A stretch of DNA of 64,000 bases from Escherichia coli (lineage in GTDB: Bacteria; Pseudomonadota; Gammaproteobacteria; Enterobacterales; Enterobacteriaceae), in NCBI RefSeq assembly GCF_024502345.1, contig NZ_JALDNN010000001.1; one strand, written 5' to 3'. The translations under genes were made by a program, and so were the position numbers. Under the pieces are notes generated by a model, which saw only the letters and a list, made by a program, of their open reading frames with translations, ran no database searches and was not told the origin of the DNA. Positions 27,021 to 62,723 of the stretch are shown piece by piece; the stretch's first letter is position 1, and every line of letters begins with the position of its first letter.

Positions 27021-28520
27021 TTAATACCGTACACACACCGACTTAGTTTCACACCAACCGTCCAGCCAGTCGGGGCCAAAATCACGGCCCGTTCCTGACT
27101 GCTTCATCCCACCAAACGGTAAGTTAGCGTCAATTAAGGTATGGCTGTTTACCCACACCGTCCCTGCCTGTAAGCGATCGCTATATTCCAGAGCCTGGGA
27201 GAGATTTTGCGTCCAGACACTGGCAGTTAAGCCATATTCCGTGTCGTTTGCCAGTTGTAACGCCTCTTCTCCATCCGCTACTCGCACCAGGTTTACCACC
27301 GGACCAAACACCTCTTCACGAGTTAAGCGCAATTTAGCATCGGGATTTACCACCAGCGTTGGCGCAACATAATACCCCTCTCCGGCTGGTCCATTCGACC
27401 CGCGAATCAGCTCTGCTTGCTGTGCCTGCGCATCGTCGAGGAATGAACACACTTTGTCGCAGTGCGCACGAGAAACCAAAGGGTTAATCTGTGCAACAGG
27501 TGACATCCCCGGTCCCACTTGCAACGATTTTACCGCCTGCTCAAATCCACTAACCAGCGTGTCAAACAACGGCGCTTCAATATAAATTCGCGAACTGGCG
27601 GCGCATACTTGCCCTTGATTCAGGAAGCTTCCGGTCATCAAGCCTTCAATAACCCATTGCGGATCAGCATCTTTTAATACAATTGCCGGGTTTTTACCGC
27701 CCAGTTCCAGCGTTACACGCGTTAAGTGATCAGCAGCAGTTCTGGCAATACCTTTTCCCGTCGCGGTTGAACCGGTAAAACTGATTTTCGCAACATGAGG
27801 ATGTGACGTCAGGGCCGCGCCGCATACAGCACCTGACCCGGTGACCACATTAAAAACGCCATCAGGGATACCAGCCTCGCTGGCCAGTTCCGCCACGCGC
27901 AACATCGTCAGTGGCGTGGTTTCCGAAGGCTTAATCACGATTGAACAGCCTGCTGCCAGTGCTGGCATCACCTTCCACATACCAATCATCAACGGAAAGT
28001 TCCATGGCACAATTCCCGCCACTACGCCAACCGGCTCTTTACGCGTCCAGGCCTGATAACGCGCCCCCTGGGGTAAGGGAATCGACAAGTCCAGCGTTTT
28101 ACCCGCGATTTTGGTCGTTAACCCGGCGGTATAACGCATCCAGTTCAGCGTACAGCCCACTTCAAAAGCACGGGAAATGGCAATTGACTTGCCTTGCTCC
28201 AGGGTTTCCAGTTGCGCCAGCTCCTCACTGTGCTGTTCCACCAGATCGGCAAAACGTAGCAGAATACGTTCACGCTCTGCGGGTAATCGCCCGGCCCAGC
28301 GACGCGAGACAAAGGCCCGCCAGGCAGACATGACTGCGTTATCTACATCCGCTTCGTTGGCATCAGCAGTAGACGCAATTTCTTGCCCGGTGGCCGGATC
28401 AAAGATCGCCAATCGTTTTTCACTTTGTGCGGGGCCTGGACGACCATCAATATAAAGACCGTGTTGACGATCGAGAAACTGTTGGACCTGGCTTAATACT
28501 GCTACATGCGGCTCTGTCAT
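27021..28520 (-). CDS. feaB: Phenylacetaldehyde dehydrogenase
   Basis: 499 aa from the second Met, [26 protein letters not shown]..., aldehyde dehydrogenase family. Confidence 0.9.
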
Positions 28521-48236: not shown

Positions 48237-48411
48237 GACGCCACCGATAACCGTTATTTATCAGACCAAAGAAACTGGCATCTACTTTAATGCAGATGAT
48301 TGTGTCAGGGTAATTTATGAACGGTTAAAACTGTGAAAAATCAGTTAGTGATAAGTAAAAACTATCGCTACGTGAACCGGGTCACACTTTTTACTGATGA
48401 CGGGAAAGGTT

Positions 48412-56937: not shown

Positions 56938-58551
56938 TCAATGCTTCACAATATACATAGTCCGACTGTACGCCACATCTTCAGGGTTATTAATGGGATA
57001 ACCTTTCAGCCACGGTTTGATTAATCGTCCATTGGTATATTGATAAATTGGTGCAATCGGTGCTTGCTCCATGAGGATTTTTTCTGCCGCGTTGTAATCG
57101 GCATTACGCGCTTTAACGGTATTTTCCGTCGATGCCTGGGCCAGAACTTTGTCGTATGCCGGATTGTTAAAGCGTGAAATATTTCCTGAATGCGTTGACG
57201 TTAATAATGTCAGGAAAGTGGAGGGTTCATTATAATCCCCCACCCATGAGGCGCGGATAACATCAAAATTGCCGGTGTTACGGCTATCGATATAGGTTTT
57301 CCATTCCTGATTTTGCAATTTAACATCTACGCCAAGGTTCTTTTTCCACATCGATGCTACAGCAATCGCAATTTTTTGATGGTTTTCTGAAGTGTTATAC
57401 AAAAGCGTCAGCTTCAACGGTTTTTGCGGACCATAACCAGCTGCGCTCAACAAAGTTTTTGCCTGCGCATTCAGTTCTTCCTGACTCATTTGTTCAAGCG
57501 GCGAAGGTTCCGGCGTAAATCCGGCGGTAACATCTGGTGTAAAATGCCACGCTGGCTTTTCGCCCGTCCCTAATACTTTTTCGGTCATCAGGCGGCGATC
57601 TATCGTCATACTTAATGCCAGACGAACGCGCTGATCTGCCGTCGGCCCTTTTTGCGTGTTAAACGCATAATAATAGGTCCCGAGCTGCGGCGGCGTATAA
57701 ACCTCCCCCGGAATATCCTTCAACAGCTTCTGATACATATTTTTCGGGAAGGATTCGGTGATATCAATATCCCCCGCGAGGTAACGCTTAGTGGCTGCGG
57801 ATTCCTGATTAATTGGCAGGAAGGTCACTTTTTGCAGTACCGTTTTGGCGTTATCCCAATAATGGGTATTCGGTACCACGACCAGTTTTTCATTGACTAC
57901 GCGTTCTTTAAGAACATAAGCGCCATTGCCGATCAGATTTCCGGGTTTCGTCCACTCTTTACCGCTTTCTACGTTGGCTTTTTGCACCGGGAAGAAGGCA
58001 AAGTTAGCGGTTAAATTCACAAACCACGGCAACGGTTTATCAAGCTGAATTTTCAAAGTATGGGCATCAACTGCGGTGACGCCAAGCTGGTCAGGCGTAG
58101 CTTTACCATCAATAATCGCCTGTGCGTTGTTGATTCCCGCCAGCGCGGCAAACCATGCAAATGGCGATAGCGTTTTCGGGTCCACCAGACGCTGCCAGCT
58201 GTAGACAAAATCTTGCGCCGTTACCGGTGTGCCATCCGCCCATTTTGCGTTATCGCGCAGGGTAAAAGTCCAGATACGGTTGTCATTACTTTTCCACTGA
58301 GTCGCAACGCCGGGGACAATTTCCCCTTTCTCGTTCTGATTCACCAGTCCTTCAAACAGATCGCGAATGACCTGAATCTCTGGCAGGCCCACGGCTTTAG
58401 CGGGATCCAGCGACGCAGGCTCATCTTTAATGTGGCGCACCAGCTCCTGCTTCTCTGCCAGTACTGTGCCGCTCGGAACTTCTGCAGCATACGAAAGAGA
58501 AATGCTGCTGACCAACAGCGCACAACACGTGACTGAAACAGAGTGCTTCAT
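56938..58551 (-). CDS. mppA: Periplasmic murein tripeptide-binding protein (OppA paralog)
   Basis: 537 aa from the internal Met, MKHSVSVTCCALLVSSISLSYA signal peptide; solute-binding protein family 5. Confidence 0.9.
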   Translation of the reverse strand: MKHSVSVTCCALLVSSISLSYAAEVPSGTVLAEKQELVRHIKDEPASLDPAKAVGLPEIQVIRDLFEGLVNQNEKGEIVPGVATQWKSNDNRIWTFTLRDNAKWADGTPVTAQDFVYSWQRLVDPKTLSPFAWFAALAGINNAQAIIDGKATPDQLGVTAVDAHTLKIQLDKPLPWFVNLTANFAFFPVQKANVESGKEWTKPGNLIGNGAYVLKERVVNEKLVVVPNTHYWDNAKTVLQKVTFLPINQESAATKRYLAGDIDITESFPKNMYQKLLKDIPGEVYTPPQLGTYYYAFNTQKGPTADQRVRLALSMTIDRRLMTEKVLGTGEKPAWHFTPDVTAGFTPEPSPLEQMSQEELNAQAKTLLSAAGYGPQKPLKLTLLYNTSENHQKIAIAVASMWKKNLGVDVKLQNQEWKTYIDSRNTGNFDVIRASWVGDYNEPSTFLTLLTSTHSGNISRFNNPAYDKVLAQASTENTVKARNADYNAAEKILMEQAPIAPIYQYTNGRLIKPWLKGYPINNPEDVAYSRTMYIVKH

Positions 58552-58608
58552 AAGTTTCCCTCTAACCGACATTAAAATTGATGCGTAATTATTTGTTTCG
58601 CCTTAAAG

Positions 58609-58645
58609 AAATGCAAACAACTTCCATCAAAAAAGTGACACAGGA
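58609..58645 (+). repeat. Copy A of a 37-nt intergenic repeat, in the pgrR-mppA spacer
   Basis: AAATGCAAACAACTTCCatCAAAAAAGTGAcACAgGA; 33 of 37 positions identical to copy B at 62599..62635. Confidence 0.7.
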
Positions 58646-58887
58646 AGCATAAAATGTTTTATGTATCAATATATTAAATCAGATTTAGTGTAAATAATAG
58701 ACGCCAAAATGCGGCAAAGCACATAGAACACCGAACACTACGTTCGGGCTTCGCACGTTCAAACCAGTTTTCGGTATCATAATCAGCATCTGTCGCCATT
58801 GTACGAAGAATAAAAAATAACCAAAACGTTGAAAGGAACTGAGAATACGTTAAGAGAAGAATTAAATTAATGTATCAGCAAGTAGTG

Positions 58888-59787
58888 CTAAACAGCACCT
58901 TTATACTTCAGCCTATCTATAAATAATGAGAATGCCGAGCCAGCATGTCGACGATGTGGATAGTACAGGTGATAACCGGGTAAATCTGGTGTGAATTTAT
59001 CCAAAACACGTATCAGTTTTTTTTCTTTAATAGCCAGCTCAACCTGATCATAAGGTAGATACGCCAATCCATGCCCATCAATTGCAGCATCAATGATCAG
59101 GTCTATCGTATTCAGTAAAAGCTGACCTTCCATGCGAACACGAACTTCACGTCCACCGCGTATTAATCTCCAGCGATTTGCTGTACCCGATGTGGGAAGA
59201 TACAAATTAATTGCCTGATGATCTATTAATTGTGACACTGACGTTGGAACACTTCGGCGAGAAAAATAATCCGGTGAGCCAACAATAGCCATTGGTATAT
59301 CTGGCCCGATTCGAATGGCGATCATATCTTTATCCATCTCCCCACCCAGACGGACGCCTGCATCAAAACGTTCAGAAACGACATCGGTCAAACCATAATC
59401 AATGGTAAGCTGAACATCAATTTCAGGATGCGATCTCAGGAATGTGCGCATGGCTGGTAACAATATCGTTTTTGCTGCATGTTCTACAGTAGTAATACGT
59501 ATTGTCCCGGATGGGCGGTTCTGCAGATCGCTCAGGGATGTCAGGGCAGAATCTATGTCATGCAACATAGGGCCAAGAACAGACAAAAGATGCTCGCCCG
59601 CTTCAGTTGGTACAACGCTGCGCGTAGTTCGCGTCAGAAGCCGCAATCCCAATCGTTCTTCTATACGGCGCACTATCTGGCTTAAAGCTGACTGCGCCAT
59701 GCTCAGGCGGGCTGCTGCGCGAGTGAAGCTACGCTCCTCTGCAACGACGACAAACGCCATCAGATCAGCGATTTCTTCACGCTTCAT
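58888..59787 (-). CDS. pgrR: LysR-family regulator PgrR (YcjZ)
   Basis: 299 aa, MKREEIADLMAFVVVAEERSFTRAAARLSMAQSALSQIVRRIEERLG; divergent from ycjY. Confidence 0.8.
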   Translation of the reverse strand: MKREEIADLMAFVVVAEERSFTRAAARLSMAQSALSQIVRRIEERLGLRLLTRTTRSVVPTEAGEHLLSVLGPMLHDIDSALTSLSDLQNRPSGTIRITTVEHAAKTILLPAMRTFLRSHPEIDVQLTIDYGLTDVVSERFDAGVRLGGEMDKDMIAIRIGPDIPMAIVGSPDYFSRRSVPTSVSQLIDHQAINLYLPTSGTANRWRLIRGGREVRVRMEGQLLLNTIDLIIDAAIDGHGLAYLPYDQVELAIKEKKLIRVLDKFTPDLPGYHLYYPHRRHAGSAFSLFIDRLKYKGAV

Positions 59788-59812
59788 TCAGTATCTCCAT
59801 ACAATCTATTAA

Positions 59813-59826
59813 TCATTTAAATGATA
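59813..59826. promoter_or_regulatory. Perfect 14-bp palindrome in the pgrR/ycjY divergent promoter; candidate LysR-type operator
   Basis: ATCATTTAAATGAT fits the T-N11-A LysR box, about 25 bp upstream of the pgrR start; followed by a GGTCTAATCA direct repeat at 59827 and 59845. Confidence 0.35.
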
Positions 59827-59924
59827 GGTCTAATCATGATTTAGGGTCTAATCAACTTAATGATCAATATCTATAGTGATATTACCAACCGTTAAAACGA
59901 ACCGACAACTCCATGAGGAACGGA

Positions 59925-60845
59925 ATGATGAATAATAAAGTCAGCTTCACTAACAGCAATAATCCAACCATCTCTTTGTCTGCAGTGATCTATTTCCCTC
60001 CAAAATTTGATGAAACCCGTCAGTATCAGGCAATTGTGGTATCTCACCCAGGTGGGGGCGTTAAAGAACAAACGGCCGGAACCTATGCCAAAAAACTGGC
60101 GGAAAAGGGATTTGTCACTATTGCTTATGACGCATCTTATCAAGGTGAAAGTGGCGGCGAGCCGCGTCAGTTAGAAAACCCATACATTCGTACTGAAGAC
60201 ATCAGTGCCGTGATTGATTACCTGACAACGCTTTCTTATGTCGACAATACCCGAATTGGTGCGATGGGAATTTGTGCCGGTGCAGGATATACAGCCAATG
60301 CTGCAATTCAGGATCGCCGCATCAAGGCCATCGGTACCGTTAGTGCGGTCAATATTGGTTCGATGTTCCGTAATGGTTGGGAAAACAATGTGAAATCTAT
60401 TGATGCCCTGCCATACGTTGAAGCGGGTTCAAACGCCCGAACCAGCGATATTAGCAGCGGAGAATATGCCGTTATGCCACTGGCACCAATGAAGGAGTCC
60501 GATGCGCCGAACGAAGAACTGCGTCAGGCCTGGGAGTATTACCACACCCCTCGCGCGCAGTATCCAACAGCACCGGGTTACGCTACTTTGCGCAGCCTTA
60601 ACCAGATTATTACCTATGATGCTTACCATATGGCGGAAGTGTACCTGACTCAGCCGATGCAGATTGTGGCGGGCAGCCAGGCAGGGAGCAAATGGATGAG
60701 TGACGACCTGTACGATCGGGCATCAAGCCAGGATAAACGCTATCACATTGTTGAAGGCGCAAACCATATGGATCTTTATGACGGCAAAGCCTATGTGGCT
60801 GAAGCAATTTCAGTATTAGCTCCGTTCTTTGAGGAAACTCTGTAA
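59925..60845 (+). CDS. ycjY: Alpha/beta-hydrolase-fold protein YcjY
   Basis: 306 aa from the internal Met; hydrolase-fold motifs including GICAGAGY around a nucleophile-elbow-like position. Confidence 0.75.
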   Translation: MMNNKVSFTNSNNPTISLSAVIYFPPKFDETRQYQAIVVSHPGGGVKEQTAGTYAKKLAEKGFVTIAYDASYQGESGGEPRQLENPYIRTEDISAVIDYLTTLSYVDNTRIGAMGICAGAGYTANAAIQDRRIKAIGTVSAVNIGSMFRNGWENNVKSIDALPYVEAGSNARTSDISSGEYAVMPLAPMKESDAPNEELRQAWEYYHTPRAQYPTAPGYATLRSLNQIITYDAYHMAEVYLTQPMQIVAGSQAGSKWMSDDLYDRASSQDKRYHIVEGANHMDLYDGKAYVAEAISVLAPFFEETL

Positions 60846-61777
60846 TGAAACATATTCAAATCCGCAATAGTGATATGGCCTGGCATATTGCTGCCAATAT
60901 TCAGTTTCCACCAAATTTTGATGAGTCAAAACAGTATCCGGTGATTATCAGCGTCCATCCTTTTGGCAGTTGTAAGGAGCAGACGTCTGGCAATATCTAT
61001 GGCAAAGCATTGGCTGAAAAAGGCTATCTCGTTCTCGCTTATGACGCCAGTTTCCAGGGAGAATCTGGTGGGGAGCCTCGCTGGATAGAAGATCCGACAC
61101 AGCGCGTAGAGGATATTAGCCGTGTTATCGATTATGCAGTAACTCTGCCATATGTTAATGCTGAACGTATTGGCGTGCTGGGAGAGTGTGGGGGTGGTGG
61201 CTATGCCATTAATGCCGCGCTGACAGAAAAACGAATTAAAGCAGTAGTGAGTATTACGGGTGTTAATATCGGGCGTCTTTTTCGGGAAGGTTTCAGCAAT
61301 TACGATCCGATTGGCGCATTGAATGCAATGGCGTCGCAACGAACCAAAGAGGCTCGTGGTGGAGAATTACAGATCAACGAATTACTTCCCGCCAGCCTGG
61401 ATGCAGCAAAAGCCCATGGACTGACCGAACGCGATGTTTATGAAGCAACTGACTACTATAAAACACCACGCGGGCAACAACCGGGAGGTGCGACAAAAAT
61501 GTTGTTCTCACATGCACAGAAAACGCTGGCCTGGGATGCCTTCGCATTTACTGAAGTGTTACTGACTCAGCCGGTGATGGTAGTAGTTGGTGAAAAAGTC
61601 GGTGCCTTCGGTGCTTATCGTGATGGACTGGAAGTCTATGGCCGGGCGATGGTTTCGCAGGATCGTCAGTTAGTTTCATTACCCGATTTCTCACATTATG
61701 AACTGTATGACAAACCGGAAGCAGTTCAGGAGGCGCTGGAAAAAGTTATTCCTTTTTTCAACACCCATCTGGGATAA
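60845..61777 (+). CDS. Second alpha/beta-hydrolase, paralog of YcjY, start overlapping the ycjY stop
   Basis: 310 aa clearly alignable to YcjY (for example YDASFQGESGGEPR, VIDY..TLPYV, GECGGGGYAINAA). Confidence 0.75.
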   Translation: MKHIQIRNSDMAWHIAANIQFPPNFDESKQYPVIISVHPFGSCKEQTSGNIYGKALAEKGYLVLAYDASFQGESGGEPRWIEDPTQRVEDISRVIDYAVTLPYVNAERIGVLGECGGGGYAINAALTEKRIKAVVSITGVNIGRLFREGFSNYDPIGALNAMASQRTKEARGGELQINELLPASLDAAKAHGLTERDVYEATDYYKTPRGQQPGGATKMLFSHAQKTLAWDAFAFTEVLLTQPVMVVVGEKVGAFGAYRDGLEVYGRAMVSQDRQLVSLPDFSHYELYDKPEAVQEALEKVIPFFNTHLG

Positions 61778-61782
61778 GTTTC

Positions 61783-62433
61783 ATGAGAAATATTATGAAA
61801 AATGTACTGATTCTTGGTGCTGGCGGTCAGATAGCCCGCCATGTGATTAATCAACTGGCAGATAAACAAACCATTAAACAAACTTTATTTGCTCGTCAGC
61901 CAGCAAAAATACACAAACCCTATCCAACTAATAGCCAGATTATTATGGGGGATGTACTGAATCATGCAGCACTGAAGCAGGCCATGCAGGGACAGGATAT
62001 TGTGTATGCCAACCTTACGGGGGAAGATTTAGATATTCAGGCAAATTCAGTGATCGCTGCGATGAAAGCCTGTGATGTTAAACGTCTGATCTTTGTTCTT
62101 TCCCTCGGCATTTATGATGAAGTTCCAGGAAAATTTGGCGAATGGAATAATGCAGTTATTGGTGAGCCCCTAAAACCATTCCGCAGGGCTGCGGATGCAA
62201 TTGAGGCTTCTGGATTGGATTATACAATTCTTCGCCCTGCCTGGCTGACTGATGAAGATATTATTGATTATGAGATTACCTCACGCAATGAACTATTCAA
62301 AGGTACGATCGTATCGCGTAAGAGTGTCGCCGCATTAATCACAGATATCATCGATAAACCTGAGAAACACATTGGTGAGAATATAGGCATCAATCAACCT
62401 GGTACTGATGGTGATAAGCCATTCTTCATGTAA
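61783..62433 (+). CDS. NAD(P)-binding Rossmann-fold protein (NmrA/atypical SDR-like)
   Basis: 216 aa with an N-terminal LILGAGGQIA glycine-rich motif; the true start may be the Met at 61795. Confidence 0.7.
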   Translation: MRNIMKNVLILGAGGQIARHVINQLADKQTIKQTLFARQPAKIHKPYPTNSQIIMGDVLNHAALKQAMQGQDIVYANLTGEDLDIQANSVIAAMKACDVKRLIFVLSLGIYDEVPGKFGEWNNAVIGEPLKPFRRAADAIEASGLDYTILRPAWLTDEDIIDYEITSRNELFKGTIVSRKSVAALITDIIDKPEKHIGENIGINQPGTDGDKPFFM

Positions 62434-62598
62434 ATCAATTATATAACTACCATCGTACTGTACTATGTGCAGTACGATTTATTAAACTTATTAAGGTGAA
62501 CTGATCAATCAGATGCGATTAACATGTGTAGAACCAGTAAGAATAAAATACGCCATGTATATAACATTACGACAATTCTAATATCTGCACATCAATGA

Positions 62599-62635
62599 AA
62601 ATGCAAACAACTTCCGGCAAAAAAGTGATACAAGA
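62599..62635 (+). repeat. Copy B of the 37-nt intergenic repeat, about 90 bp upstream of mpaA
   Basis: AAATGCAAACAACTTCCggCAAAAAAGTGAtACAaGA. Confidence 0.7.
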
Positions 62636-62723
62636 TCGATGACATAGCGTTGAAGAAAAGGATTTGATAATCCGCAAAATTTGCACAACACTGCCTGTAA
62701 TACTTCCTGAACCAGAGACGATC

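Follow-up and report, generated by a model that had tools for sequence, protein, structure and literature searches.

In lysogens of phage lambda, direct repeats of a 15-bp core flank the inserted DNA between gal and bio, one in each of the junctions attL and attR. Phage 21 and e14 integrate in icd, and elements of the P4 and P22 type in tRNA genes, and these elements carry a replacement copy of their target: a long identity between attP and attB rebuilds the disrupted function by restoring the 3' end of a gene. Transposons also leave a direct repeat of the target at both ends of the insert, typically 2–14 bp long, with an empty site in relatives, and have terminal inverted repeats and a transposase. 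A further point of comparison is the regulon of the LysR-family protein PgrR ('peptidoglycan recycling regulator'), for which genomic SELEX (Shimada et al. 2013), as far as the summary in PMC5934670 goes, names only the ycjY/ycjZ spacer in the locus considered here.

We analysed a stretch of 64,000 nucleotides of Escherichia coli DNA (the window), in which a 37-nt sequence occurs once upstream of mppA and once upstream of mpaA. As in lambda attL and attR, the direct core repeats flank inserted DNA, and as in lambda attP, the DNA beside the mppA copy (copy A) is homologous to the P arm, with 76% identity over 95 nt. Unlike lambda, the locus has a core of 37 bp instead of 15 bp, in which the central 5 nt differ; it lies in the mppA/mpaA spacer and not between gal and bio; it has no int or xis, no recognisable P' arm and no P1 or P2 arm sites; and its interior is a cassette of metabolic and regulatory genes, not a prophage. 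It resembles phage 21, e14 and the P4/P22-type elements in that both promoters (that of mppA being a predicted one) are intact, and differs from them in that a bidirectional promoter region is restored and not the end of a gene. The direct repeat of the target at both insert ends and the empty site in relatives are also what a transposon would leave, but 37 bp is outside the typical range, and attP homology is found in place of terminal inverted repeats or a transposase. Finally, the motif is like an operator of the PgrR regulon in its position, next to a LysR gene and upstream of genes whose pathway is attributed to PgrR, and unlike one in that the reported site, in the summary cited, is the ycjY/ycjZ spacer (PMC5934670) and in that the 37-mer is older than pgrR.

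A 3.95-kb insertion flanked by a duplicated 37-bp sequence

Copy A (AAATGCAAACAACTTCCATCAAAAAAGTGACACAGGA) and copy B (AAATGCAAACAACTTCCGGCAAAAAAGTGATACAAGA) are identical at 33 of 37 positions and have the same orientation, with their starts 3990 bp apart (Table 1). With up to 3 mismatches allowed, a 30-nt pattern has two occurrences in the window and none in 100 shuffles, and an alignment of the surrounding 320 nt shows nothing convincing past about 37–40 nt. Copy A lies 58–94 nt upstream of the mppA start codon, and the end of copy B is 89 nt upstream of that of mpaA. A preliminary description had reported the two copies with this identity, orientation and spacing, and pgrR between them, and both the alignment and the annotation coordinates bear it out. 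In 5426 complete E. coli genomes, the 37-mer occurs at a median of 2 places per genome (maximum 4), and is therefore no dispersed repeat; no secondary structure was predicted for it and it has no match in Rfam. A dispersed repeat of the REP, ERIC or MITE type is excluded by the low copy number, the lack of structure and the lack of an Rfam family, and an RNA element or terminator by the absence of an Rfam match and of a stable fold, in agreement with the earlier statement that the motif is not REP, not ERIC and not a terminator.

Table 1. Coordinates of the features of the mppA/mpaA locus in the window. Gene coordinates follow the RefSeq annotation of an identical O157:H7 record; over 58500–58900, the window is 100% identical to O157:H7 NZ_CP033605.1.
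Feature	Position	Strand	Basis
mppA	56938–58551	minus	RefSeq annotation
Predicted mppA sigma-70 promoter	58588–58617	minus	Consensus scan
Copy A, read as attR-like junction core	58609–58645		Repeat comparison
Putative 7-bp overlap in copy A, CATCAAA	58625–58631		Register with lambda TTTATAC
Relic homologous to lambda attP	58629–58723	plus	BLASTN, local alignment
Insertion, 3,953 bp	58646–62598		Not present in empty-site genomes
QueH (epoxyqueuosine reductase) pseudogene fragment, 75 bp	58716–58790	minus	RefSeq annotation; weak QueH matches
pgrR (LysR family), imported module	58888–59787	minus	RefSeq annotation, homologous modules
pgrR-ycjY divergent spacer with palindrome ATCATTTAAATGAT	59788–59924		Kept in mobile modules
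ycjY, ymjD (alpha/beta hydrolases), ymjC (NmrA-like SDR), imported operon	59925–62433	plus	RefSeq annotation, donor homology
90 bp between end of module homology and copy B	62509–62598		Place expected for P' arm
Copy B, read as attL-like core; mpaA core promoter	62599–62635		Repeat comparison; TSS of Kim et al. 2012
Putative 7-bp overlap in copy B, CGGCAAA	62615–62621		Same register as in copy A
mpaA extended -10, TGaTACAAG	62626–62634	plus	Distance to published TSS
mpaA transcription start site (TSS)	62641	plus	Kim et al. 2012 Table S1
mpaA	62724–63452	plus	RefSeq annotation

The empty site in relatives shows why there are two copies. We mapped the neighbouring genes at 80 MpaA-encoding loci, one genome per species, and found that mppA and mpaA are adjacent and divergent in about 70 further Enterobacteriaceae species (in Citrobacter, Enterobacter, Kluyvera, Leclercia, Lelliottia, Pluralibacter, Kosakonia and other genera) and in 5 other Escherichia lineages. 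Within Escherichia, the locus is uninterrupted in E. albertii, E. whittamii, Escherichia sp. MOD1-EC7003 and two species representatives labelled 'E. coli'. The empty spacer, which is 176–203 bp long overall and exactly 182 bp in Escherichia, contains a single 37-mer (57 + 37 + 88 = 182) and is collinear with the mppA flank and copy A on its left and with copy B and the mpaA flank on its right. Two 37-mers are present only at loci that have pgrR-ycjY between mppA and mpaA, which are those of E. coli and Escherichia sp. E1V33, and 173 of the 5426 complete E. coli genomes (3%) keep the uninterrupted 182-bp spacer. Therefore, the DNA between the copies in the window is an insertion, and the two 37-mers are a single ancestral sequence of the mppA/mpaA spacer, duplicated at the ends of that insertion. 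Duplication of a target at the insert ends accounts both for the direct orientation of the copies and for the presence of one copy before each gene.

Copy B is identical to the single copy of Escherichia sp. MOD1-EC7003 and of insert-free E. coli, and copy A differs from this ancestral copy at 4 positions. Two of the changes, the C at 58639 and the G at 58643, are common to every copy A examined, including that of Escherichia sp. E1V33, and the AT spacer of copy A is specific to E. coli. At the mpaA transcription start, the insert-bearing E. coli alleles that we examined (the window and L002) have G, all of the empty-site alleles examined (L092, L094, L095 and L003) have A, and the insert-bearing Escherichia sp. 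E1V33 (L005) has A too. Because the empty sites have the ancestral A, the insert-free E. coli alleles are unlikely to be recent precise excisions, on the few alleles sampled, and the A argues that they are ancestral.

The insert is of foreign origin. Orthologues of PgrR with 88–89% identity are scattered among Klebsiella, Raoultella, Kluyvera, Enterobacter, Citrobacter, Salmonella, Pantoea and Serratia, and one is annotated on a plasmid of Klebsiella variicola. We fetched nine contexts, and in all of them pgrR is part of a six-gene module in which it is divergent from a five-gene operon that codes for two alpha/beta hydrolases, an NmrA-like SDR, an adh_short SDR and an OYE flavoprotein. The surroundings of the module vary–conjugative-transfer genes, ars genes or chromosomal genes in Klebsiella, Raoultella and Salmonella. 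The window matches the module at 79% nucleotide identity over 3.6 kb, from 58888 to about 62504–62508, so that the matching stretch begins at the pgrR stop codon and ends where the missing adh_short gene would have its start codon; the imported operon is cut off before the adh_short and OYE genes that the donor modules have. The 37-mer is absent from the donor modules. Since the module is mobile elsewhere and its donors do not have the 37-mer, pgrR came in as cargo of the insert, together with its likely operator, at a site where the 37-mer was present beforehand. The conserved divergent promoter of mppA and mpaA has thus been split by a horizontally acquired cassette, which comprises pgrR and ycjY-ymjD-ymjC.

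The spacer between pgrR and ycjY, which is the ycjY/ycjZ site named among the SELEX targets, is likely to be the native PgrR operator region. The mobile modules found in Klebsiella, Raoultella and Salmonella keep its perfect palindrome ATCATTTAAATGAT, and positions 59800–59870 also hold two GGTCTAATCA repeats that the mobile modules keep; by their sequence, the palindrome and the repeats are good candidates for the PgrR box. Between the lambda-like relic described below and pgrR sits the QueH pseudogene fragment; the insert has thus been pieced together from several past contexts. A direct repeat of 47 nt within the insert (60613–60659 and 61530–61576, 70% identity) exists because ycjY and ymjD are tandem paralogous alpha/beta hydrolases, with about 41% protein identity.

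The locus has also been altered in other ways. About 45% of complete E. coli genomes have a K-12-type deletion (window 61933–62598; L002 8045–8056) that removed most of ymjC and the spacer behind it. The deletion stops exactly at the left edge of copy B, at position -43 of the mpaA promoter, and has therefore spared the mpaA core promoter. It is also found in Escherichia sp. E1V33, which suggests that it spread by recombination. In Salmonella enterica subsp. arizonae (L024 7449–9677; also L025), three ORFs similar to CdtA, CdtB and CdtC of cytolethal distending toxin lie between mppA and mpaA, so this spacer has been struck independently by other insertions. With their cdtABC-like genes and no integrase-bearing element, the enlarged spacers of Salmonella arizonae/diarizonae were rejected as integrations at the same core. 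So was the spacer of Citrobacter sp. 18056 (L054 1282–9882), where one ORF of 2866 amino acids fills the 9.2 kb between mppA and mpaA, with no flanking direct repeat and no integrase.

Homology to lambda attP at the left junction

The 242 bp between copy A and pgrR matched 48.5-kb records that are phage lambda, at a place just past int. In BLASTN searches of 2.3 Gb of phage records annotated with attP or misc_recomb, the match is to lambda positions 27731–27637 (E = 3e-8), and a local alignment to lambda attP scored 71, compared with 18 ± 2.6 for shuffled sequences (z about 20). The lambda annotation places the 15-bp core at 27724–27738 and the P2 Int arm site at 27615–27634; the homology begins in the middle of the core, follows the P arm and stops just before P2. 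Within the homology, one 16-mer, TATCAATATATTAAAT, is identical and fits the IHF consensus, WATCAANNNNTTR. When this 16-mer was used as a query, it found only lambda-type attR junctions and chance AT-rich matches.

Extending the same register to the left without gaps gives five mismatches and then CAACTT opposite CAACTT. This Int core-type hexamer falls exactly on lambda C', and AAAAAAG on the C side. Read in this register, the junction at copy A consists of bacterial flank, core and P arm, which is the layout of lambda attR junctions in lysogens. The equivalent of the overlap would be CATCAAA in copy A of E. coli and CGGCAAA in copy A of Escherichia sp. E1V33. At position 10, to the left of the overlap, E1V33 has its own bacterial type, T, in copy A and the insert type, C, in copy B. 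Together with the C and G to the right of the overlap in all copies A examined, this is the partition that an att model predicts.

From these observations, we think it probable that an element of the lambda family, whose attP shared about 37 bp with its target, integrated here and has since decayed, and that the two copies are its attR-like and attL-like cores. Integrase-mediated recombination as the mechanism, and the position of the overlap region, are what we infer from the register and from the partition. The sequence of events would be as follows. In the ancestral state, mppA and mpaA stood back to back with a 182-bp spacer and one copy of the 37-mer, which would have held the core promoter of mpaA on one strand and the predicted -35 of mppA on the other. 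A lambda-family element with about 37 bp of its attP in common with this site would have recombined within the central CGGCAAA, forming an attR-like junction (bacterial flank, copy A, P arm) and an attL-like junction (element DNA, copy B, bacterial flank); the left half of copy A would then be bacterial and its right half derived from the element. Both genes would have kept an intact promoter because the element brought a matching copy of the sequence. During decay, the integrase and nearly everything else would have been lost, leaving about 80 bp of the P arm, the QueH fragment and the piece of the module with pgrR-ycjY-ymjD-ymjC. Today the copies would be immobile relics, with copy B serving as the mpaA promoter and copy A probably supplying the -35 and the upstream part of the predicted mppA promoter. 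Read in this way, the locus is a new case of something known, in which the att-core repeats left by an integrated element that has decayed double as promoter DNA. With it, the E. coli chromosome gains a decayed integration site of the lambda type that had not been listed before, and the locus would provide an example of an element whose attP rebuilds a promoter instead of the end of a gene.

Several observations count against an att origin or leave it incomplete. An intergenic attP/attB identity of 37 bp exceeds the 15 bp of lambda, the similarity of the ancestral site on its own to the lambda core is statistically not significant, and the differences between the copies also fit a simple duplication followed by mutation. 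No remnant of an integrase or excisionase is annotated between the copies; an integrase gene has presumably been deleted. On the other side of the insert, no significant similarity to lambda P' was found in 62480–62640, a stretch that takes in the 90 bp left of copy B; the P' arm may have diverged or been lost. The 94 bp left of copy B are single-copy in E. coli. No Int arm-type sites could be recognised in the arms at the locus. In a variant allele found in 561 genomes, AAGTCAGCAT matches the Int arm-type consensus at 8 of 10 positions, which is barely above chance (p about 0.08). Searches of viral contigs for the exact core, and of viral and metagenome contigs for an attP-type junction, found none, and neither these contigs nor the 80 related loci included an occupied site in which the element is intact.

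The main rival is an insertion that was duplicative and not site-specific, in which illegitimate recombination or the repair of a staggered break duplicated a 37-bp target and the lambda-like stretch is part of an imported patchwork. The comparison of empty and occupied sites fits any duplicative insertion, the integrase, P' arm and arm-type sites were not found, and the insert is indeed a patchwork of a QueH fragment and a truncated module. Against this, the attP homology starts inside the repeat, at the equivalent of the lambda crossover and in the attR register, with CAACTT aligned, and such an in-register homology would be a remarkable coincidence for random DNA. We therefore consider this origin unlikely, though a real contender. 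Transposition in particular is unlikely, because the insert has no terminal inverted repeats at its ends and no transposase annotated within it; to our knowledge, a target duplication of 37 bp is also far longer than those of known bacterial transposases.

One further observation concerns the region left of copy B. In 561 complete E. coli genomes, 18 extra nucleotides, TTACATCTAAGTCAGCAT, follow window position 62574; an example is E. coli 2013C-3252 (L218, about 470–487).

Promoters in the 37-mer and the question of a shared operator

The transcription start of mpaA was mapped to position 1388705 of NC_000913.2, on the minus strand, with 20 reads, and the sequence from -50 to +1 is listed as AACTAATAAAATGCAAACAACTTCCGGCAAAAAAGTGATACAAGATCGATG (Kim et al. 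2012 PLoS Genet Table S1). In the window this start is 6 nt downstream of copy B, which spans -42 to -6. An extended -10 lies inside the copy, with TG at -15/-14 and TACAAG at -12 to -7, and TGnTA is kept across genera, in most of 73 spacers. By the mapped start and the conserved -10, copy B is the mpaA promoter (sigma-70, extended -10). In copy A, positions -12 and -8 are altered by the changes at 58639 and 58643, so that the -10 reads CACAGG; therefore rightward firing from copy A is not expected.

On the other strand, we predict a sigma-70 promoter for mppA with the -35 TTTGCA (58617–58612) inside copy A, a spacer of 18 nt, and the -10 AATAAT (58593–58588) in the bacterial flank. Both hexamers are within the most conserved blocks of the spacer in an alignment of 73 species. 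The sole mppA start in Table S1 of Kim et al. (2012) lies within pgrR, 489 nt upstream, and the SMRT-Cappable-seq supplements have no entries for mppA or mpaA. The ancestral 37-mer would thus be the common -35/-10 zone of two back-to-back promoters, as predicted for the mppA side, and the duplication would have left each gene with a complete promoter, that of mppA being the predicted one. With the mapped mpaA start beside copy B and the predicted mppA -35 in copy A, the motif does belong to the control regions of both murein-peptide genes, as had been noticed from the sequence.

The preliminary description went further and proposed a shared operator for a common regulator, with PgrR as the candidate. 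In this reading, both copies bind one transcription factor, PgrR or another, that co-regulates uptake and degradation of the murein tripeptide. Across genera, conservation in the region is highest in the blocks GAAATGCAAA(T/C) and ...AAAnTTGATA, and these lie at about -35 of back-to-back promoters, where one bound protein could act on both; in addition, mppA and mpaA serve one pathway. As regards PgrR itself, the proposal is not supported. The motif is older than pgrR and is kept in orthologous intergenic regions of about 70 Enterobacteriaceae species whose mppA/mpaA locus has no pgrR. In the summary of the SELEX targets cited above, only the ycjY/ycjZ spacer is named here. On reading the 37-mer against the conserved pgrR-ycjY spacer we found no common motif: the ATCATTTAAATGAT palindrome, which travels with the module, has no counterpart in the 37-mer. 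Age, the lack of co-occurrence with pgrR, the lack of a motif relation and the SELEX list all speak against a PgrR operator, and we regard it as very unlikely that the motif exists because of PgrR.

What stands of the proposal is that a single ancestral copy at the -35 of both promoters could serve a different regulator. The conservation is equally explained by the promoter elements themselves, no clear dyad symmetry is seen on reading the sequence, and a shared operator would explain only a function and not the existence of two copies, so a common operator for any factor seems doubtful. Equally doubtful, in our view, is its most specific form, in which the ancestral copy was a bidirectional control element, whose near-invariant GAAATGCAAA box binds a putative regulator that couples uptake through mppA to degradation through mpaA, and in which the element was selected for a faithful copy of it. 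If this were true, each gene would have retained its own regulated promoter after the insertion, and the att duplication would have made two independent operator copies that were free to diverge, as copy A has done.

For the PgrR regulon, the insertion implies that control of mpaA by way of the ycjY operon is a secondary result, and that mpaA keeps its ancestral promoter. More generally, the empty site in relatives should be checked before two-copy repeats near related genes are called operators.

A table of ChIP-seq results in a study of ETEC lists a CRP site, CGTGAACCGGGTCACA, under 'ycjZ/mppA' (PMC4287617); this sequence is actually at 48371–48386, in the abgR/abgA divergent spacer, and is irrelevant here.

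Each copy also opens an ATG ORF of 13 codons on the plus strand (A, MQTTSIKKVTQEA; B, MQTTSGKKVIQDR), and that of copy B is fused in frame to the ymjC remnant in K-12, but a small protein or leader peptide is extremely improbable and we rejected these ORFs as by-products of the duplication: they have no Shine-Dalgarno sequence, the ATG of copy B is upstream of the mapped mpaA start, the frame stops after 4 to more than 40 codons of unrelated sequence in other genera, and the shared residues are simply duplicated DNA.

The most conserved block of the whole spacer in the 73 species is TTTGATAATCCGCAAAATTTGCACAACACTGCC, in the 5' leader of mpaA (62659–62695, +18 to +55). It is CA-rich, like target sites of the GcvB sRNA; alternatively, it could be a second promoter or an operator.
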